Assembly: GCA_021846045.1 (NCBI GenBank)
Contig: JAJZCM010000002.1
Coordinates: 16,585 to 80,584, forward strand
Length of the DNA stretch: 64,000 bases
Direction: 5' to 3'
Source: a bacterium
GTDB taxonomy: Bacteria > Elusimicrobiota > Elusimicrobia > UBA1565 > UBA9628
Both the position numbers and the translations under genes were made by a program. The notes beneath the pieces were generated by a model that saw only the letters and a program-made list of their open reading frames with translations, made no database searches and was not told the DNA's origin. How positions within the stretch are numbered: the stretch's first letter is position 1; every line of letters starts with the position of its first letter. Positions 4,909-18,156 of this stretch are shown here, in pieces.

Positions 4909-5004
4909 TTGACGGGACATGATTTTGTGGTATACTACTAATACAACCCCATTCCCTTCGGGGGGTGGGCGCGAAGCCATCCGCAAGGGTGGCTTCTGCT
5001 TTTT
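4909..5004 (+). promoter_or_regulatory. promoter plus structured 5' leader (repeat A1) of the NYN nuclease gene
   Basis: TTGACG-17nt-TATACT sigma70-like promoter, then a leader with hairpins (CCCTTCGGGG; GAAGCCA...TGGCTTC) ending in a T-run immediately before the ATG. A ~75% identical copy (A2) lies at 12306-12420. Confidence 0.5.
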
Positions 5005-5619
5005 ATGAGAACATTCGTTTACGTGGACGGCTTTAACCTCTACTACCGCGCCTTGCGCAATACGCCCTACCGGTGGCTTGACCTCTCCAAACTCGCGCAA
5101 ATTCTGTTGCCCAAGCATCAAATCCACAGGATTCGCTACTATACGGCCCGCGTTACCGCTCGCCCCGGCGATCCTGATCAGCCGACCAGACAGCAGTTCT
5201 ATCTGCGGGCCTTGGCGACGATTCCCAACCTTTCCATCACCTACGGCCAATTCCTAACGCATAAAAAGAAAATGACTTTAGCCTCCGATCCGGCTAAAAC
5301 CATCGAGGTGCTCAAGACGGATGAAAAAGGCTCCGATGTGAATTTAGCGACCCACTTGATCTACGAGGCCATGCGTGATGAGTTTGACGCGGCCGTCGTC
5401 GTCTCGAACGATTCAGACCTAGCGGAACCCATTCGTATCGTTACTCAGGAGGTTCACAGGAAAGTAGGCATCCTGACTCCGGCCAGAATCCCGACACGTG
5501 AATTGCTTAAATATTGCACCTTCTATAAGCCGATACGAAACGCCGTGCTGGCGGCCAGCCAATTTCCTCTGGAACTTGAGGACGCTCATGGCAAGTTCCG
5601 CAAGCCGGACTCCTGGTAG
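5005..5619 (+). CDS. NYN-domain (LabA-like, PIN-fold) putative nuclease
   Basis: MRTFVYVDGFNLYY..., EKGSDVNLATHLIYEA, VVVSNDSDL: canonical NYN/LabA motifs. Confidence 0.7.
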   Translation: MRTFVYVDGFNLYYRALRNTPYRWLDLSKLAQILLPKHQIHRIRYYTARVTARPGDPDQPTRQQFYLRALATIPNLSITYGQFLTHKKKMTLASDPAKTIEVLKTDEKGSDVNLATHLIYEAMRDEFDAAVVVSNDSDLAEPIRIVTQEVHRKVGILTPARIPTRELLKYCTFYKPIRNAVLAASQFPLELEDAHGKFRKPDSW

Positions 5620-5624
5620 ATTCT

Positions 5625-5859
5625 TGGTGTCTATCCGGTGTCCATAACAGTCTAATTCCAGCAAAGAGGCGGGCTTGTGATTATCGCATTTCCCGACGGC
5701 GGTCATAAACCGTCAGAATCGGTCAAAGTTTAGATTTCCCCTCGCCCGCTGGGGCATCTTCAAGGCCGGTTCAGGTGCGCTCGATCTCGATTCCGAATTC
5801 CCCGTCCTCTTCGTGGACGTGAAGCGTCAGCGCCCGGCAACAGACCTGGCAGTCCTCGT
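5625..5859 (+). repeat. 235-bp perfect direct repeat, copy B1 (contains orphan 3' end of CPXCG zinc-ribbon gene)
   Basis: Identical base-for-base to 13442-13676. The reverse strand encodes ...EDCQVCCRALTLHVHEEDGEFGIEIERT*, the C-terminus of the gene at 13588-13902. Confidence 0.9.
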
Positions 5860-5860
5860 C

Positions 5861-7276
5861 TCAAGGGATGTTCCCCTCGGGGCATGGGGGTTTGGATTCC
5901 GCCCTTTTTTTCCAGTCTTCGATAAGGGATACGATTTCTGGACGGGATGTCTCTGCAAAGTCCTCCGCATTGAGCCCATGATTCTCCTTGGCATCAACGT
6001 CGGCCCCAGCTTGGAGAAGAAGGGAGATCACGTTTGCATGACCTTTGCCAGCCGCCCAGATCAGCGCGGTGAACCCCTTCATGTTCTTGGCATTGACATC
6101 GGCCCCGGCCTTGAGAAGAAGGGGGATCACGTTCACATGACCATTATTAGCCGCCCACATCAGCGCGGTGGACCCACCCACGGTCCTAGCATTGACATCT
6201 GCCCCGGCCTGGAGAAGAGGGGGGATCATGTCCGCATGACCATCGTGGGCCGCCCACATCAGTGCGGTGTTCCCATCATTATCCCCGGCATTGACGTCAG
6301 CCCCAGCCTTGAGAAGAAGGGGGATCACGTTCGCATAACCACTGTGAGCCGCATTCATCAGCCCGGTGTCCCCATCCTTGTCACTGGTATTGACATCGGC
6401 CCCGGCCGCAAGAAGAAGGGGGATCGCGTTCGCATGACTCTGGGCAGCCGCATATATCAGTGCAGTCCTCCCACTCTTGTTCCCGGCATTGACGTCAGCC
6501 CCAGCCTTGAGAAGAAGGGAGATCGTGTCCGCATCACCACCCAACGCCGCCCACATCAGCGCGGTTAACCTATTATTGTCCCTGGCATTGACATCAGCTC
6601 CGGCCTTGAGAAGAGGGCGGATCACGTTCGCATAACCACTGTGAGCCGCCAACATCAGCGCGGTGGCCCCCTCCTCGCCCCTGGCATTGACGTTGGCCCC
6701 AGCCTTGAGAAGAAGGGAGATCACGTTCGCATGACCATTGTCAAGCGCGAACATCAGCGTGGTGTACCCATCATCGCTCTTGGCATTGACATCGGCCCCG
6801 GCCTGGAGAAGAAGGGGGATCACGCTCGCATGACCATTGCTAAGCGCACGCATCAGCGCGGTGAGCCCAAGCTCGCCCTTAGCATTGACGTTGGCCCCAG
6901 CTTGGAGAAGAAGGCGGACCACGTTCGCATGACCATCCGCAGCCGCATACATCAGTGCGGTGTCCCCACCCACGCCCCTGGCATTGACGTTGGCCCCAGC
7001 CTTGAGAAGAATGGGGATCACGTTCGCATGACCACTATCAACCGCCCATATCAGCGCGGTCCACCCAACCTTGTTCCCGGCATTGACATCGGCTCCGGCC
7101 TGGAGAAGAATGGAAATCACGTTCGCTTGACCTTGTTGAGCCGCATTCATCAGCGCGGTGGTCCCGTTCTCATCCTTAGCGTTGACGTCCGCGCCTTTTT
7201 CTATGAGGGTCAGAATTTTCCCGACGTTTTCCTCCTTACAGGCATCGATGAAACTTTGATCTGCTCGTTTTTCCAT
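5861..7276 (-). CDS. ankyrin-repeat protein (about 13 ANK repeats)
   Basis: 471 aa with tandem 33-aa units (G.TALM.AA..GH..V...LL.AGADVNA...). The stop codon sits exactly at the B1 repeat boundary. Confidence 0.85.
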   Translation of the reverse strand: MEKRADQSFIDACKEENVGKILTLIEKGADVNAKDENGTTALMNAAQQGQANVISILLQAGADVNAGNKVGWTALIWAVDSGHANVIPILLKAGANVNARGVGGDTALMYAAADGHANVVRLLLQAGANVNAKGELGLTALMRALSNGHASVIPLLLQAGADVNAKSDDGYTTLMFALDNGHANVISLLLKAGANVNARGEEGATALMLAAHSGYANVIRPLLKAGADVNARDNNRLTALMWAALGGDADTISLLLKAGADVNAGNKSGRTALIYAAAQSHANAIPLLLAAGADVNTSDKDGDTGLMNAAHSGYANVIPLLLKAGADVNAGDNDGNTALMWAAHDGHADMIPPLLQAGADVNARTVGGSTALMWAANNGHVNVIPLLLKAGADVNAKNMKGFTALIWAAGKGHANVISLLLQAGADVDAKENHGLNAEDFAETSRPEIVSLIEDWKKRAESKPPCPEGNIP

Positions 7277-7346
7277 TTGCTCTAACCCCCTCGTCCGTTC
7301 TGAGATTTTTTCTGAACTACCAAGACAAATCGCTCAAGGATTAATC

Positions 7347-7781
7347 TCATTGGAGAAACCGATACAACTTACTATATTTTTCCAACTGCCTTCTTCTTTC
7401 TCGATAATTTCGATGTCTTTCCACGGCATTGGGATTGTAAGGATTCCAATTATCCCGAACCTTCTTAATGCGATAATTCTCCGCCGCTGTTTTAAAGATT
7501 GGAATCCCTGCTATGGAAGACGCTCCATTCTCAAAACTCCGTCTAATGAATTCACGGGATTCTTTTTTGGGGAGAGTCGCGTATTGAATGACAACTTGGC
7601 CGTTTTTCTCTTTTCGCAATTCGGCTAATTGTTCTTTGATGGAGGATATCTCGCTGTGCAACCTCGCGATAGAACCTGTTTGAGAACTTGTATGCGGCTT
7701 TTCAGAGGTTTTTATCGTTATTAACTCTGCTGATGCCGAACCGGCAGTCACTAATAAAAACAGAATCCAATTTTTTGACAT
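7347..7781 (-). CDS. small secreted hypothetical protein
   Basis: The ORF has signal-peptide-like MSKNWILFLLVTAGSASA at an internal Met. The mature part is charged and Arg-rich. Confidence 0.4.
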   Translation of the reverse strand: MSKNWILFLLVTAGSASAELITIKTSEKPHTSSQTGSIARLHSEISSIKEQLAELRKEKNGQVVIQYATLPKKESREFIRRSFENGASSIAGIPIFKTAAENYRIKKVRDNWNPYNPNAVERHRNYRERRRQLEKYSKLYRFLQ

Positions 7782-7807
7782 GTGATTATCCCCCCTACGC
7801 TTAATCA

Positions 7808-8188
7808 TTATTTCCTTTTAGAAATTGCTGAAGCCGCCATCGCCAAGAAAACTCCAATAAAAAACCACTTTATTATGAAAAAAAATACTTTAAAGATACC
7901 GCCCAAGACGCTAAGCGTAGTATCCCCAGCCTTACTCCATTCTGACGCTTGAGAAGAGTTTTTCCTTAACTTCGTTTCCGGCATCTCCACGGCTTCCATT
8001 CTTTGAGACATCGTCGTCTGGCAGCTTGGGATAAAAAACTTCATGTTTGCTTCTTGATGAGCTTTGAGTTCTGCCCTTATTTTACTGCTGCAATTCAAGA
8101 TATTGATGTTGTTATCAATATTATCCGTATCAATCTCCGCCTCCACGTTATTATCCCAATCCTGCTCAAGGGCCTCATTAAAATTCAT
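7808..8188 (-). CDS. hypothetical tail-anchored membrane protein
   Basis: 126-aa ORF with acidic N-terminus and a single C-terminal TM (FKVFFFIIKWFFIGVFLAMAASAI). Confidence 0.35.
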   Translation of the reverse strand: MNFNEALEQDWDNNVEAEIDTDNIDNNINILNCSSKIRAELKAHQEANMKFFIPSCQTTMSQRMEAVEMPETKLRKNSSQASEWSKAGDTTLSVLGGIFKVFFFIIKWFFIGVFLAMAASAISKRK

Positions 8189-8198
8189 AAACCACCCC

Positions 8199-8531
8199 CT
8201 ATTTCATCCCCAACTCTCCCAATAGATTGCCAACAATGATCCCGGAATCGGATTTCCAGTTCTCGATCCTAGGGTCTGCTTGATGCCCTAAAATTCTCCT
8301 TCCTTGGTAAAAAGTCAAGCTTTTTTGAATTCCACGATTTAATCGTGTCGTGGCAACTCTCGCGAGCCGGCAATACCTTAAAAACAACGCGACTTGTCTT
8401 AAGGTAAGTGGAAAAAGACTCATGTTAATATCTTTTTCAAAGGCCGCGACTGTCTTTTTAACGTCTTCCAACAACATTTCCCGTTCTCTATGCCGGAACA
8501 TCGCGATTTTCCTTGTGTTAGGTGACATCAT
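8199..8531 (-). CDS. hypothetical small protein (possible HTH)
   Basis: 110-aa ORF tightly packed between neighbours on the same strand. No recognisable family. Confidence 0.3.
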   Translation of the reverse strand: MMSPNTRKIAMFRHREREMLLEDVKKTVAAFEKDINMSLFPLTLRQVALFLRYCRLARVATTRLNRGIQKSLTFYQGRRILGHQADPRIENWKSDSGIIVGNLLGELGMK

Positions 8532-8546
8532 TATCTTAACCCCCTT

Positions 8547-10007
8547 TTATCCCCAAGCGTTATACTTGCTGTTGATATATCTTGAAAAATCACTTTCTTT
8601 GGAAAGAAGCCTGCTCTTATCCTCAAAGTAATAATCGTTATAACGATCCAAATTAATCGTATTTTCTTCGGTGACTATTCCAATTTCCTTGGCTTGGCGT
8701 ATAATAAGCCCCCATTTTTCTTTTGAGAGAGTTATCCTTTTGGATATAAAATCCTGGATATACTCGCCCGCGTCTACACCTTCTTCATGCTTTAAACAGG
8801 ACACCGCGCTATTAAAAGCCATAATAAAGAGAGACCAATCTTTCCAAATCTTAAAGGTATACGATGACTTTGTGTAACCGCTTGGTCTTCCGTAAATCAT
8901 GCCTCTGTCCGGCTTTTCCATCTTTTCTAACTCCTCCAAGCCTTCAACCCGAGTCATTCTAAACTCTGGAGTAGGCGCCGCCTTTATACTGACGGTTTTA
9001 GGAGGAACGCAGGTCTGCACGTGGAATAATCCCTCGCCTTCCGGGGATTTTACCCACGCGGACCCTATCGCTTCGGAATCCGTATTATCAGGGCATTCCC
9101 CCAGTATGGACATATAATCTGTATTCGTAGGAAGCCTAAAAGCTATCCTCGTTGGAAAATTAACTTTTATGGAATTTGATACCGCCGCAACCGTGGGACG
9201 CTGCGTCGCCACTATTAAATGAATCCCAGCCGCTCTCGCCAATTGACCAAGGCGAGTAACGCAACTCTCAATCATAGCCCCATCCCCACAGCTTAATAAT
9301 TCCGCGAATTCATCAATAATAACGACTATCCTCGGCATCTTCTTCCCAGATTGGATATATTGATGAATATTCAAATATCCCTCTTTTCCAAAAATGGATA
9401 ATCGCTGCTTCATTTCGACGATGAGAAGCCCCAATATTTTTACGCAGTCTACAGCGGATTTAACAACGCTATACGGGGCGATTGGATTATATAGGAAGGC
9501 ATCATTAGCATAACAGGTGAAATCAACGCCTTTTGGGTCCATGAGAACAATCCGAACTTCGTTCGCGGTATTGGCCCTTCTTAACGCCTCGATCACGCAC
9601 TTAATGTAAGAAGATTTTCCAGAACCGGAGCTCCCCGCGATAAGCAAATGCGTGGTCTTAAGAAAATCAAAGAACCTTAATTTTCCAAACGCATCCATCC
9701 CAACCGGAATTGATAATGATGAAAAACCCTCCGGCACGGATTTTATTACGTCCTCAAATAACAAAGAGATGGGGGCATGGGACCGAAGCTCAAATCCGAT
9801 CAAGCCTCGCTTATACGGAACATGGAGGCGGATATCGCATCCAATAGCGACGGAGATATCCAGCAGTCTTGATTTTAAAGAAGAGACTCTTAATGCGGGA
9901 GAAACCGCTAATTCGTGAATCTCTGAATTAAGCGTTTTAACGATGCCGCTGGATTTTAAATCAAACCCATAAGACTTTAGAACCTCTTCCAAGTCTTTCC
10001 CAAGCAT
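8547..10007 (-). CDS. FtsK/SpoIIIE-family DNA-translocase-like ATPase with unknown C-terminal domain
   Basis: Walker A GSSGSGKSS, Walker B VVIIDEFAELL, FtsK motif VATQRPT. The ~160-aa C-terminal extension has no recognisable family. Confidence 0.75.
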   Translation of the reverse strand: MLGKDLEEVLKSYGFDLKSSGIVKTLNSEIHELAVSPALRVSSLKSRLLDISVAIGCDIRLHVPYKRGLIGFELRSHAPISLLFEDVIKSVPEGFSSLSIPVGMDAFGKLRFFDFLKTTHLLIAGSSGSGKSSYIKCVIEALRRANTANEVRIVLMDPKGVDFTCYANDAFLYNPIAPYSVVKSAVDCVKILGLLIVEMKQRLSIFGKEGYLNIHQYIQSGKKMPRIVVIIDEFAELLSCGDGAMIESCVTRLGQLARAAGIHLIVATQRPTVAAVSNSIKVNFPTRIAFRLPTNTDYMSILGECPDNTDSEAIGSAWVKSPEGEGLFHVQTCVPPKTVSIKAAPTPEFRMTRVEGLEELEKMEKPDRGMIYGRPSGYTKSSYTFKIWKDWSLFIMAFNSAVSCLKHEEGVDAGEYIQDFISKRITLSKEKWGLIIRQAKEIGIVTEENTINLDRYNDYYFEDKSRLLSKESDFSRYINSKYNAWG

Positions 10008-10414
10008 AACCTTACCCCCCTTATAGAAGTTTAAGCTCTGGACTTTCGTTTTAACGCTTTGTTTATTGCATCAACCGAGCAAGGGTGCAGAACCAACATC
10101 TCGGTTGCTTAGGCCAGTGTAGCCATAAGTTAAACTAAAAAACACCCAGCGTTACTACGCTACAAAAGTGGTGGGTAATGGCCGAAATACGCAACTTCTT
10201 CAACCATCCGCTTTATCCGTGAAATATCTTTTATCAATTCCTCAACACAACCTCACCCCAGGATTATAGACCCCATCTTGAACTTTTTCAAGGGGGCGAA
10301 AAATTTGCGCAACGGAAGGGTTATGAGTTAAACTAAAAAATCGCTCGGCCGGGGTGGGTCCAGGTAGGTGGGACGCGACAGGCGGAACAAAGCCGACAAT
10401 GGGAGGGAACCTAA

Positions 10415-10882
10415 GTGCATTATATTGACGACAATCTTGTGGAAGGCGAGTCCGTTATTTTTCAAACAACACTCCACTGGATAACCGCGTGTTTGCCGCT
10501 TATCGGCAGTCTGTTTTTTTGGCTCTGCGCTTGGCTCGAAATCGGTCTCAATGAGGGCTATCCTGCACTGGGCTACTTTCTAATGGGGGGCCTAATTGCC
10601 TCAGCGCCCTTCATTGCAATATCTACTTCGGAATTTGGAATTGCGACGCAAAGGGTGATGATTAAGGTCGGGCTCCTTCAGACGCATACTCTTGAGATAT
10701 TCCTGTCCAAGGTGGAGTCCATATCCGTGGACCAAACGATTGTCGGATGACTTTTAGGATATGGGACACTGGTGGTCAAAGGGACTGGCGGAACAGCAGA
10801 GCCGTTCCCATGAGTAAAAGATGCTTTTGAATTCCGCAAGAAAGTGCAAGAGCAAATTGCAAGGACGAAAACAGAAAAATGA
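10415..10882 (+). pseudogene. bPH_2 (YdbT-like bacterial PH) domain membrane protein interrupted by two in-frame TGA codons
   Basis: Two TM helices then RVMIKVGLLQTHTLEIFLSKVESISVDQTIVG-[TGA 10748]-LLGYGTLVVKGTGGTAEPFP-[TGA 10811]-VKDAFEFRKKVQEQIARTKTEK-[TGA 10880]. The conserved bPH_2 motifs continue in the same frame across both internal TGAs. Confidence 0.55.
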
Positions 10883-10966
10883 AGCTCTCAAAAAAGTTTT
10901 CTCCTCCGGGAACTCCCAGATTGCGAAGATGAGTGTGAGATGAATGAATCAAAGGAGAAAAAACGA

Positions 10967-11254
10967 ATGCCGACCTATAAAACATACACGTGCTACCAGT
11001 CCCCCATGGGACCGCACACTGTCTCTGTGCCCGAATGGCAAGAGCCGCCGGATGATATATGTCCGGAGACTGGCATCAAGAGACACAAATGGGTCATTGC
11101 CACCAATGCTCGCTCGGGAACCTGGAACTGTGGCGAATGCGCTAAGCCAATAGGAGTAAATGATTGCGTCCTCTGTGAGAATGGTTGCGGACAAAAATTC
11201 CACAAAACTTGCTTCGAAAAGCACAATCGAGGGGCGCATTCCGGGCAAGCGTAA
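10967..11254 (+). CDS. Cys-rich RING/PHD-like zinc-finger protein
   Basis: AAGGAG RBS 7 nt upstream. C-x2-C-x7-C-x2-C-x3-C-x4-H-x2-C-x3-H pattern (NCGECAKPIGVNDCVLCENGCGQKFHKTCFEKH). Same frame as the bPH_2 ORF, TAA stop. Confidence 0.45.
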   Translation: MPTYKTYTCYQSPMGPHTVSVPEWQEPPDDICPETGIKRHKWVIATNARSGTWNCGECAKPIGVNDCVLCENGCGQKFHKTCFEKHNRGAHSGQA

Positions 11255-11272
11255 AGGGTTTGAGACAATAGT

Positions 11273-11581
11273 ATGAACATAAAATCGGTTGCGCATCTAT
11301 TTGAGTCCTCAGGCACTGCTTTAGGTGCCGTAAAGGATTTGCAATGGAATGAGGGCCAACAAAAATTTGTGAAGGTCCAGAGCATAGGCGGCGCAGTGGA
11401 ACTAGTGCCCGGATTCCAAGAAAGCGGCGAAATTACTTTCTACATCAACAAACCTCTCAGCGTAGCAAAAACGTATCGGCTCAAAATGCTTAGCAAGGCC
11501 ATTCCAATTAAAATAACGCACGTGGAAGGTCCCGGTGGGGATGGATTCTATTTTGTCCGTGCCAGTCAAATGCAGGCGTAG
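11273..11581 (+). CDS. hypothetical protein
   Basis: 102-aa ORF directly downstream of the Cys-rich gene. No recognisable motif. Confidence 0.3.
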   Translation: MNIKSVAHLFESSGTALGAVKDLQWNEGQQKFVKVQSIGGAVELVPGFQESGEITFYINKPLSVAKTYRLKMLSKAIPIKITHVEGPGGDGFYFVRASQMQA

Positions 11582-11584
11582 CCC

Positions 11585-11932
11585 ATGGGCTGTTGCGTGG
11601 AATGTTTGGCGGCCTCTTGGTGGTGGATTTTTGGGGTGGCATTCAGCGCCTTTTGGAGCATTCGTAGCTGCTGTCTCTTTACGAAAGAATATCGAGATTG
11701 TGAAAAATTTTGGTGGGGTAGCTACCAATTCATTCTCAATTTTTCTTGCTCCTTTGCTGGCTGGATATGCCTTCATATTCTGGAATTACGTTTCATGTCT
11801 GTGGGTCATGTCAATCAACTTAGCTGGGCAGACTTCGCTCTGTTTTTGCTTGCCCTGCTTGGCGTTACCGGATCGCTACCACAGTTTTTAGTCAAGTTGC
11901 CGGAGGCCATTGTCAAGGCGACCAAGAGCTGA
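11585..11932 (+). CDS. hypothetical Cys/Trp-rich membrane protein
   Basis: 115-aa ORF 3 nt after the previous stop. An overlapping alternative frame (11535-11891) also looks membrane-like, so the frame assignment is uncertain. Confidence 0.25.
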   Translation: MGCCVECLAASWWWIFGVAFSAFWSIRSCCLFTKEYRDCEKFWWGSYQFILNFSCSFAGWICLHILELRFMSVGHVNQLSWADFALFLLALLGVTGSLPQFLVKLPEAIVKATKS

Positions 11933-12305
11933 ACGAAGAAATGAGGAGAACTATGCCAAGAACAAGAAGAGGGACACCACTGATCCGGAGAAAGATAGTT
12001 GAACACGTAGCCTATCCGGAATGCAAGACGGAATTAGCCGTCAGCATCAGAGTATTGAGACGCAGGTAGCCGCGCCGCGAAGTTGCCGGAGGCTGAATAC
12101 GGCCTTCAGTCAGATGAAACTTGGAGCGCACCGTGGAATCACCCCTTTCGCTTTCTTCCCTCTTGTCTTGTGATGCCGAACATACATCTCTCTCATGTAT
12201 TCCCACCTCGCATTGGGACTCATCAAAATGACCTCCCGGATCCAAAAAGAAACCTTCAGGAAGCATTATACCTCGCCCTTTTTTCGGTAACATTTTCAAA
12301 TGAGT

Positions 12306-12420
12306 TGACACGACGACATGATTTTGTGGCATACTAATTACACAACCCCCAACCCTAGTGGAAGGGGTGCGAGGCCGCTCGAAAGGACGGCTTCTGCATT
12401 TTATGAGAACATACGTTACG
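12306..12420 (+). promoter_or_regulatory. promoter + structured leader repeat A2 with truncated NYN-like start (MRTYV...)
   Basis: TTGACA...CATACT followed by a leader homologous to A1, including the GAGGCCG...CGGCTTC hairpin and T-run. ATG at 12403 opens only a 16-codon remnant. Confidence 0.45.
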
Positions 12421-12606
12421 CAGACGGTCGCAAAGACTCTTGCTTTTTTTGATACAACGAATCATCATTAGGGGAGATAAGATGACCCATCAAGAGATTT
12501 ATGAGAAGGAGTATGGCGAAAAAGGTTGGGAGAAGCTCAATTCTAGGATTAAGAAAATCTTCAAGCGTATTGATTCTTTGCCGTCTTTAAGCGACAAACA
12601 AGTTAA

Positions 12607-12831
12607 TTGATTTCGTGGGCATTGACAATCTTTATAATCTGTCTTATACTGAAGTGTATTCGACAAGGGGATGTTAACATGAGTAGCAAAAAATTCTTGA
12701 TTAGCGCGATGGGTAGAAAGAATTATCTCAACCTGTCGAAAAGCTTCAGAGAAAATATCGATCTCTTAGACAAGCTCCCACCGACCGCCAAGCCGGTCAC
12801 ATTGAAGCAGATCGAAAACGCCCTGAAATAG
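12607..12831 (+). CDS. small hypothetical protein, possible antitoxin-like partner of the PIN gene
   Basis: 74-aa ORF (the likelier start is the internal MSSKKFLISAMGRKNYLNL at 12679) ending 15 nt before the PIN gene. An extra 42-codon ORF at 12481-12609 precedes it. Confidence 0.3.
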   Translation: MISWALTIFIICLILKCIRQGDVNMSSKKFLISAMGRKNYLNLSKSFRENIDLLDKLPPTAKPVTLKQIENALK

Positions 12832-12846
12832 CGCTATACAAGAGCG

Positions 12847-13404
12847 ATGGGCCAATACTGTTACTTGTTTGATGCAAGTGCCTTGGTTGCGCTGTTGCTC
12901 AAGAATCCCGATGGCGATGTGAAAATTGCCAAAGGGAAAATTTTAAAATTGCTTGCCAATGGGCGCAAGAATGAAAATTCGCTGTTTTTCGTTCCAAATA
13001 TTTGTATGGCCGAGGTATCTTCGGCTTTGGCCAAAATTTTTCTAGCAGACGGCTATACAGAACAAAGAGAGAACTCGTATCGACAGCATGTTGAATTTCT
13101 TCTGGAGTGGGTTTCATCGAAGAAAAGGCATGTAATACAAACCTACGCTCTCAAACGCTCACATCTTGTCGATATCGAACATATTTTTATTGCCGACCGG
13201 AAGTTGCCTGGGAGAAAAGGGAACCCGCTGAGTGGGCATGATGGCATCATAATTGCCATGGGGCGTGTCCTTGGAAGAACATATGGGAACGGGAACGTAA
13301 TAATTTTAACTCTTGACGGAAGAATGGCTGACGTTTGCGTCCATAACCGGGATTTTTTCCCCCATGCCATAGACCTTGCCAGACAAGAAATTCCTGGCGC
13401 CTAG
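12847..13404 (+). CDS. PIN-domain (VapC-like) putative nuclease
   Basis: N-terminal YLFDASALVALL, later AEV and SGHDGIIIAMG acidic motifs, consistent with a PIN fold. It ends 37 nt before repeat B2. Confidence 0.5.
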   Translation: MGQYCYLFDASALVALLLKNPDGDVKIAKGKILKLLANGRKNENSLFFVPNICMAEVSSALAKIFLADGYTEQRENSYRQHVEFLLEWVSSKKRHVIQTYALKRSHLVDIEHIFIADRKLPGRKGNPLSGHDGIIIAMGRVLGRTYGNGNVIILTLDGRMADVCVHNRDFFPHAIDLARQEIPGA

Positions 13405-13441
13405 AAGTTTTGCGTTGATTGCCGCCGCTCGTATGTCTGAG

Positions 13442-13676
13442 TGGTGTCTATCCGGTGTCCATAACAGTCTAATTCCAGCAAAGAGGCGGGCTTGTGATTA
13501 TCGCATTTCCCGACGGCGGTCATAAACCGTCAGAATCGGTCAAAGTTTAGATTTCCCCTCGCCCGCTGGGGCATCTTCAAGGCCGGTTCAGGTGCGCTCG
13601 ATCTCGATTCCGAATTCCCCGTCCTCTTCGTGGACGTGAAGCGTCAGCGCCCGGCAACAGACCTGGCAGTCCTCGT
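13442..13676 (+). repeat. 235-bp perfect direct repeat, copy B2 (native 3' end and downstream region of the CPXCG gene)
   Basis: Identical to 5625-5859. Confidence 0.9.
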
Positions 13677-13902
13677 AGAGAATTTGGCCCGCGTCATCGG
13701 ATGAAACCTTGATCTCGAAGCTTTCGTCGCAGTAGGGGCATTCAACCAATACGTCTTGCTCCAAGACCTCGTCTCCGGATTGAGTGGATATTTCTTCGAG
13801 GACGGATTCGAGAACCTGTCCGTTTGAATAGGCGGGGGCTTCCGGCTGAGATTTTTGCCGCTCCTTTTTTACGTGGCCTGCGGTTTTAGTTTTGCTTTTC
13901 AT
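13588..13902 (-). CDS. CPXCG-motif cysteine-rich zinc-ribbon protein with Lys-rich N-terminal extension
   Basis: VECPYCDESFEIKV...YEDCQVCCRALTLHVHEEDGEF matches the CPXCG family. The last 28 codons lie inside repeat B2. Confidence 0.6.
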   Translation of the reverse strand: MKSKTKTAGHVKKERQKSQPEAPAYSNGQVLESVLEEISTQSGDEVLEQDVLVECPYCDESFEIKVSSDDAGQILYEDCQVCCRALTLHVHEEDGEFGIEIERT

Positions 13903-17608: not shown

Positions 17609-17824
17609 AGAACGAAGTTCTCAAAGCCAAGGGCAAAACCCGTTTTATATCTTTCCCATTATTTTAAGCGCTTTCGCGCGGACTACTACGAGCGATTGCA
17701 GGCTGTGCGCGATCAGGGCGATTGGGAGGGGTGGCTTCGCTTTTTCTTGACCGGGGTCGCGACCATTCGCAGATTTCGCTTTGAACCTTTCTTGCGCTTA
17801 TTTGAAGACGGACGCGCAAAATGA
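17609..17824 (+). pseudogene. C-terminal remnant of a Fic-family protein
   Basis: VLYLSHYFKRFRADYYERLQAVRDQGDWEGWLRFFLTGV is the conserved segment that follows the Fic HPFxDGNGR core in COG3177-type proteins. No Fic core is present upstream. Confidence 0.55.
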
Positions 17825-17868: not shown

Positions 17869-18156
17869 GCTGATGCCCTTCGTTGTTCCAGCGGGGTTTG
17901 CCGCCAATGCGGAACTGGGAGCGCCTCATACGTTAAAGAACTGAAGGGACGACTGGAACTTCACTTCTTGCCGGGGTACGCGCCGGAACTCAACCCTGAC
18001 GAATTCGTGTGGAACTACGTCAAGAACGAAGGCGTCAGCAAGAAGCCGTTGAAGCGCAACGAGTCGCTTCGGCGGCGTGTCGAAAGCGATCTCGCTGGCA
18101 TCAAGCGTCGGCCCGCGCTGGTACGATCATTCTTCGGAGCGCCAAGTGTATCCTAT
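17869..18156 (+). pseudogene. IS630-family (DDE_3) transposase C-terminal remnant
   Basis: LELHFLPGYAPELNPDEFVWNYVKNEG matches the IS630 C-terminal LPPYSPELNP motif. No intact transposase or inverted repeats. Confidence 0.6.

Follow-up and report, generated by a model that had tools for sequence, protein, structure and literature searches.

In-frame TGA codons in a bPH_2 gene on a small mobile element very probably mark a recent nonsense pseudogene rather than a recoding event

Results

Features of the locus

The window, by which we mean the whole 64-kb stretch of DNA analysed, contains a small mobile element, and within this element lies a gene of the bPH_2 family whose reading frame is interrupted by in-frame TGA codons. 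The features concerned are the following.

5625–5859, no strand: left copy of a perfect 235-nt direct repeat (100% identity between copies, spacing 7,817 nt)
5860–13441, no strand: body of a 7,817-bp integrative/circular element (GC content, circular contig, empty site, domain matches)
5861–7276, minus strand: ankyrin-repeat protein of the element
Between the ankyrin and FtsK/SpoIIIE-like genes: p153, p126 and p110, three small proteins of the element
8547–10007, minus strand: FtsK/SpoIIIE-like ATPase of the element
10415–10882, plus strand: bPH_2 (YdbT-like, 'membrane-flanked domain') gene, very probably a pseudogene (PF03703, phrog_3707, alignments to 21 and then 82 homologues)
10415–10750, plus strand: 111-aa ORF (P0001), the sole ORF of the gene remaining under the standard code (ORF list)
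10748–10750, plus strand: first premature TGA, codon 112, replacing a family-invariant Arg (CGC in the closest intact relative, L008)
10811–10813, plus strand: second premature TGA, codon 133, in the last beta-strand and in a variable, mainly basic column (CAA, Gln, in L008)
10940–11254, plus strand: Cys-rich zinc-finger-like protein of 104 aa, or 95 aa from the ATG at 10967 (ORF list)
11273–11581: p102, an element gene
12847–13404: p185, an element gene preceded by small ORFs
13442–13676, no strand: right copy of the 235-nt repeat (100% identity)

The frame that opens at 10415 with a GTG start, preceded by GGGAGGG, spans 279 codons and is terminated by the TAA at 11252–11254. Upon translation, its only internal stops are the TGA codons at 10748–10750, 10811–10813 and 10880–10882, as the initial annotation had proposed, and the peptides it gave on either side of the stops are as quoted. 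Residues 1–155, with X at the first two TGAs, match the Pfam family bPH_2 (PF03703) well above its cut-off of 22 bits (43.1 bits, E=5e-11) as well as phrog_3707, the 'membrane-flanked domain' (E=2.4e-24). The PF03703 match covers residues 73–142 and profile positions 5–76 of 78, with both TGAs inside it, confirming the earlier suggestion that the domain runs on across these two codons. The same annotation had seen no frameshifts, and indeed there are none, since a tblastn alignment to the closest intact homologue stays in one frame over 10421–10870 (65.6% identity). The alignment to homologues is free of gaps over the whole bPH_2 domain, and two transmembrane helices are predicted ahead of the PH-like domain.

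The initial annotation treated the frame up to 11254 as a single gene with three interruptions, which holds for the first two TGAs but not for the third. The TGA at 10880–10882 aligns with the natural stop of the family, homologues finishing within a few residues of it, and 10940–11254 is a separate gene, so that, as judged from these alignments, only the TGAs at 10748 and 10811 are premature. Two separate genes had thus been merged. The downstream ORF has its own AAGGAG and its own ATG at 10967, is annotated as a 95-aa gene on public contigs and gives a weak match to C1_1 (E=6e-4, under the Pfam cut-off); the genes that adjoin bPH_2 genes elsewhere are not homologous to it. It is unrelated to the bPH_2 gene and shares its frame by chance.

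A small mobile element carries the gene

The sequence between the two repeats has a GC content of 0.43–0.47, compared with 0.50–0.54 in the flanks, and the right repeat contains the last 89 nt of a CPXCG zinc-ribbon gene (13588–13902, minus strand). A MEGAHIT contig, L001, is 7,958 nt long, which equals 7,817 + 141, and its first 141 nt are identical to its last 141 nt. As a terminal overlap of this length is the signature of a circle at k=141, we interpret this contig as the circular form of the element. In a sister metagenome-assembled genome (L093; DAHZHZ010000005.1, GCA_027401925.1) both flanks are present at 100% identity with a single copy of the repeat and no element, while a further contig (L094; GCA_027401875.1) spans the right junction and supports the integrated form. 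The features expected of an integrative element are therefore all found here: flanking direct repeats, a circular form and a relative with an empty site.

Among the element proteins, only the FtsK-like ATPase, the ankyrin protein and the bPH_2 protein have matches in Pfam, PHROGs, PADLOC or NCBIfam, and no integrase, recombinase or replication protein was found with these four collections. A search of the element against a plasmid database gave no match. One possibility is that the element moves by Campbell-type recombination through the 235-nt homology. An FtsK-like protein with 93% identity led us to related elements (L097–L099), with which only the FtsK-p110-p126-p153 module is shared (window 7326–10066; L097 9942–12738; 91% DNA identity) and which carry no bPH gene. 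One of these, L097 (GCA_021829385.1), encodes an integrase and has a primase-like gene, an AAA_25 helicase gene and a type II restriction-modification gene. From this comparison, the element in the window looks like a reduced or mosaic relative of an L097-type element.

Several other observations were made on the element and its surroundings. The ankyrin gene consists of 12 tandem 99-nt units with 61–78% identity, and its product matches the giant phrog_9049 as well as PADLOC PDC-M72A (E=4e-94). Between the FtsK-like and bPH_2 genes, which are divergently oriented, the intergenic sequence holds two copies, 198 nt apart, of an 18-nt motif, AT(A/G)AGTTAAACTAAAAAA (10125–10142 and 10323–10340), which could be an operator, an origin-like repeat or a chance occurrence. 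Adjoining the left repeat is a gene for an NYN-domain protein (5005–5619, plus strand) that matches phrog_7929 (E=2e-70) and HEC-09, a candidate defence family of PADLOC (E=2e-42). This protein and p185 occupy equivalent positions beside the repeats, and a relationship between the two was considered and rejected, as no similarity was found. Positions 4911–5019 are repeated at 12310–12417, inside the element, at 81–83% identity; besides two GC-rich hairpins, the repeat comprises a promoter close to the consensus (TTGACG-17 nt-TATACT) and the opening five codons of the NYN gene, and it gave no match in Rfam. In the element copy, the body of the NYN gene is replaced by small ORFs and the 185-aa gene, and the two copies of the repeat resemble a common, cassette-like entry point that is followed by different cargo in each case.

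The TGA codons replace an invariant Arg and a mainly basic residue

The residues replaced by the two premature TGAs were determined by aligning the gene with 21 and then with 82 homologues, as the initial annotation had recommended. The column of codon 112 holds Arg in 82/82 homologues, in agreement with the earlier remark that Arg is usual at this position in bPH_2 proteins, and it is encoded by CGC (22), AGA (20), CGG (16), AGG (11), CGA (9) or CGT (4). The column of codon 133 is more varied (K 32, R 14, N 10, L 7, M 5, Q 4 and others), with Lys or Arg in 46 of the 82. The closest intact relative, P0002 on L008, shares 65% amino-acid and 73% nucleotide identity with the window gene and has CGC and CAA at the two sites; beyond the gene itself there is no synteny between the two loci. 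At codons 112 and 133, homologues thus carry sense codons, and a single base change suffices to reach TGA from, e.g., the CGA that 9 of them use at codon 112. Both stops would fit a C-to-T change in a CGA Arg codon, for which the ancestral residue is certain at codon 112 and inferential at codon 133.

The consequences of truncation were considered on an AlphaFold model of P0002 (pLDDT 89). The model begins with a short strand, followed by helices 22–49 and 52–78 and four strands; next come a short helix (116–121), which holds the Arg equivalent to window codon 112, two strands (123–130 and 135–142), the second of which includes the residue equivalent to codon 133, and a C-terminal helix (144–158). 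This is the architecture of bPH_2 proteins, with two transmembrane helices, a PH-like beta-sandwich and a C-terminal helix. Foldseek returned PH-domain matches to the model, including the bacterial PHb1 structure 3dcx, and a sequence search of the PDB found no meaningful match. When projected onto the model, the 111-aa product retains the N-terminal strand, both transmembrane helices and, of the PH fold, the first four strands. It would lack the last third of the fold, from the short helix through the final two beta-strands to the C-terminal helix. Because of these missing parts, we presume the product to be inactive.

Downstream constraint and the timing of the stops

All 13 of the 13 invariant or near-invariant family residues downstream of the first TGA are kept, and the coding signal past the stops is therefore real. 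At downstream positions where the window and P0002 differ, it is usually the window that agrees with the family consensus. Relative to L008, dN/dS is 0.155 over codons 113–152 and 0.17 over codons 66–111, the upstream part of the domain. Since dS to L008 is ~0.8–0.9, a short period of neutral evolution would be invisible in these ratios, and the low downstream value means that the disruption would be recent, not that the sequence is still under selection. No further lesion was seen downstream. Unchanged ratios and the lack of further lesions are in keeping with a very recent event, though in themselves they do not argue for a pseudogene.

The two nonsense changes, which lie 21 codons apart, are thus the only lesions visible in the gene. 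By our own count, a stop results from about 16–18 of the 387 single-base changes that are possible in the 43 downstream codons (~4–5%), suggesting that under drift alone a second stop would precede any other visible change in about 1-in-20 cases, which is somewhat unlikely. It would be less rare if C-to-T changes at CGA are favoured. A plausible variant of the pseudogene reading is that the first UGA was leaky and that selection would then have favoured a tighter inactivation. It should be noted that all public copies are identical over the gene (7 contigs), showing no within-population variation, and that a search of 5.8 billion proteins returned no relatives between 100% and 65% identity. 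With the nearest intact relative at only 73% DNA identity, the ancestral codons and the timing of the changes cannot be fixed.

The stops are not a family trait, and read-through is improbable

The absence of downstream decay is mildly odd, and it leaves a small chance that the stops are read through functionally. The pair of UGAs could be a functional gate, such that the full-length membrane protein is made only upon UGA suppression or read-through, for instance under stress or when a recoded phage supplies a suppressor tRNA, and the gene would then be a conditionally expressed effector. Both stops are UGA, the leakiest stop codon, and the first is followed by C, a weak termination context in E. 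coli data; the gene has no frameshift or other lesion and an unchanged downstream dN/dS, resides on a mobile element and belongs to a family that occurs as phage 'moron' genes. A distant homologue with TGA at the codon of the same Arg, described below, also speaks for a gate. Against this, no stop was found at either position in any of 80 loci from GTDB representative genomes. Stops elsewhere in the gene occur at 2 of these 80 loci, L037 (TAG) and L076 (TGA), both in the transmembrane part. When the 111-aa product was searched against 1.84 billion cluster representatives, 22 short proteins were retrieved from the best 150 representatives, none of which ends just before the Arg except the query's own product. 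Phage homologues, the records of which are mostly from Ackermannviridae, have one matching place covering at least 80% of the query in 282/282 records.

A single distant homologue, P0032 on L009 (23–560), does have a TGA at the codon of the same invariant Arg, and it was examined as a possible case of a recurrent stop. Its 85%-identical relative on L010 has CGG at this codon, and L009 itself has in addition lost 1 nt, a deletion by which the frame is shifted ahead of the C-terminal helix, on a contig with a coverage of 0.7x. With no further case among the proteins checked, the recurrent stop was rejected. The TGA of L009 probably represents either an independent knock-out or errors, in a codon from which a stop is only one step away, and not a conserved feature. 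On these comparisons, the stops at codons 112 and 133 are not a trait of the family, while sporadic knock-outs occur elsewhere in it (L037, L076 and L009).

The 60 nt after each of the three TGAs fold no better than shuffled sequences (z −0.41, −0.64 and −0.39), and no SECIS-like or read-through-stimulating hairpin follows the stops. A suppressor tRNA (anticodon UCA), which the initial annotation had proposed to look for, was not found in the 64-kb window or the element; the four tRNAs of the window are those for Gly, His, Lys and Glu. Two serial stops at typical bacterial read-through would allow well under 1% of full-length product, and read-through usually inserts Trp, here at an invariant Arg. 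Programmed read-through is expected to show a stop conserved in relatives together with downstream constraint, and this combination is not seen. The phage Qbeta A1 protein is a product of programmed UGA read-through, and the gene in the window resembles it in having an in-frame UGA followed by coding-like sequence. In known cases of this kind, one stop appends an extension to a complete protein and is conserved among relatives, whereas the window has two unconserved stops inside one compact domain. Taken together, we consider a functional gate improbable. A stronger form of it, in which the two UGAs are a deliberate double lock on a membrane-active effector of the mobile element, is more doubtful still, the hints for it being the absent downstream decay and the second homologue with TGA at the same Arg, and nothing else. 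If it were true, the UGA suppressor tRNA of a recoded phage would trigger a response by the host or the element.

The element and its host use TGA as a stop codon

As an alternative to a pseudogene, the initial annotation had raised the option that the gene comes from a donor that decodes UGA as sense, or that UGA is read through, and had added that such an origin would mark the island as foreign or recoded. A donor of this kind could be a recoded phage or a lineage using code 4 or 25, and the location of the gene on a foreign, lower-GC mobile element is in keeping with it. TGA, however, is used as a stop in the window, as the initial annotation had noted; it is the commonest one and ends 23 of the 53 genes, and two of the island genes (5861–7276 and 7347–7808) also terminate in it. 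No in-frame TGA was found in the 1,737 codons of the 8 other element genes or in the 10,616 codons of 22 host genes, giving 0 in 12,353 codons for genes of the element and the host part of the window; the initial annotation had recommended such a scan for the whole genome or contig set. Ten CGA codons stay intact in the element, and Trp is encoded by TGG throughout (3 times in the bPH_2 gene and 23 times in the element). A mechanical scan of the window for ORFs joined by TGA proved too noisy, and the codon counts in confident genes were used instead. Upon six-frame inspection of the larger non-coding gaps, we found no other TGA-interrupted gene but only gene remnants; the gaps inspected also include normal genes ended by TGA, e.g., that of a FixX-like ferredoxin.

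The positions of the two TGAs are equally at odds with a donor that reads UGA as sense. Known reassignments of UGA give Trp or Gly, while here one TGA falls on an Arg shared by 82/82 homologues and the other on a Lys/Arg/Asn column. In addition, L008 and the 80 genomic homologues are intact at both positions under code 11, and the phage homologues align without interruption over at least 80% of the query. In recoded phages and in bacteria with code 4 or 25, reassignment is a whole-genome effect, with TGA in many genes of the replicon and at Trp or Gly positions. The window shares with them an in-frame TGA in a gene with intact homology and nothing else, since it has one affected gene, Arg/Lys positions and neighbouring genes that end in TGA. 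A UGA-sense donor is thus very unlikely, and the option as raised finds no support in the element's codons, its TGG Trp codons or the residues replaced. Of its corollary, the foreign nature of the island stands, as it is a mobile element, while recoding does not: the island is foreign, yet uses the standard code.

Two observations on the host part of the window belong beside the gene remnants mentioned above. What remains of a DDE_3 transposase of the IS630 type, a C-terminal piece (Pfam E=7e-10), is found at about 17880–18110 (plus strand) and a second fragment, with no Pfam match, at 17620–17800 (plus strand), both between an RNase T-like gene and the FixX-like ferredoxin gene. Dead pieces of genes are therefore present in the host part of the window as well.

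The stops are authentic

The source is evidently a metagenome-assembled genome, in which stops could be due to errors in sequencing or assembly. The 111-aa product is recorded on 11 public contigs, and 7 contigs that were retrieved, which come from other samples and were built with two assembly pipelines, match the window at 100% identity over 10300–11300 (1,001 nt). Based on these identical contigs, sequencing or assembly error is excluded for practical purposes, bearing out the initial annotation, which had thought it unlikely; we regard an artefact as scarcely credible. That the TGAs encode selenocysteine, for which the in-frame UGA codons themselves are the only indication, can be dismissed as next to impossible, given that homologues have Arg and Lys/Arg/Asn and in neither column Cys, that no hairpin beyond shuffled expectation lies 3' of either UGA (z −0.41 and −0.64), that an Rfam search of the island was empty even at E≤1, with no SECIS match, and that the window has no tRNA-Sec.

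Discussion

Based on our results, we consider it very probable that the interrupted frame is a recent bPH_2 pseudogene that arose by nonsense mutation, in an accessory gene on a small mobile element. This was one of the two options of the initial annotation, which had pictured CGA-to-TGA transitions, and the Arg found in 82/82 homologues, encoded by CGA in 9 of them, speaks in its favour. The ancestral gene would have encoded an inner-membrane bPH_2 protein of ~155 aa, in which a bacterial PH-like domain comes after two transmembrane helices. TGA would then have been introduced by two single-base changes, at codon 112, an invariant Arg, and at codon 133, a position of Lys/Arg type, the likeliest route at each site being a C-to-T transition in a CGA Arg codon; such CGA intermediates are inferred. 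Under the standard code, used by host and element, translation would end at codon 111, presumably with loss of function.

This kind of feature, an ordinary nonsense pseudogene, is already known. With other pseudogenes formed by CGA-to-TGA changes, the gene described here shares a premature stop at a conserved Arg, intact orthologues elsewhere, its accessory position on a mobile element and its membership of a family that is sporadically disrupted (L009, L037 and L076). It is unlike ordinary cases in that it has two stops without other damage and that a relaxation of constraint is as yet undetectable.

The intact members of this family, PF03703 bPH_2 (formerly DUF304) or PHROG 3707, which are YdbS/YdbT-like, have in common two transmembrane helices and a PH-like domain of ~80 aa. 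The copy in the window differs from them in its two stops, in having no complete domain under the standard code and in its location on a small mobile element. One 183-aa homologue, P0031, is encoded 1–2 genes upstream of SLATT_5 and RVT_1 genes (L010 3001–6119; L011 545–3663). A pairing of SLATT with a reverse transcriptase is typical of defence-associated reverse-transcriptase systems, which hints, by analogy, that some family members may reside in defence islands. In a previous study, DUF304 (now bPH_2) was tied to bacterial PH domains, and membrane-anchored oligomeric rings formed via the PH domain were proposed (Xu et al. 2010, PMC2817789). Such PH-domain proteins have also been implicated in bacteriocin transport or immunity in work on leaderless bacteriocins (e.g., PMC8657885).

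For annotation, our findings mean that a disrupted bPH_2 gene, rather than a recoding event, should be recorded at 10415–10882. The locus is also a useful worked negative in the search for alternative genetic codes, demonstrating that an in-frame TGA with preserved downstream homology is by itself insufficient. What decides the matter is whether in-frame TGA also occurs in other genes of the replicon, and which residues the TGAs replace. The more interesting by-product is the element that carries the gene, 7.8 kb in length and without a recognisable integrase, which is seen integrated, circular and absent.
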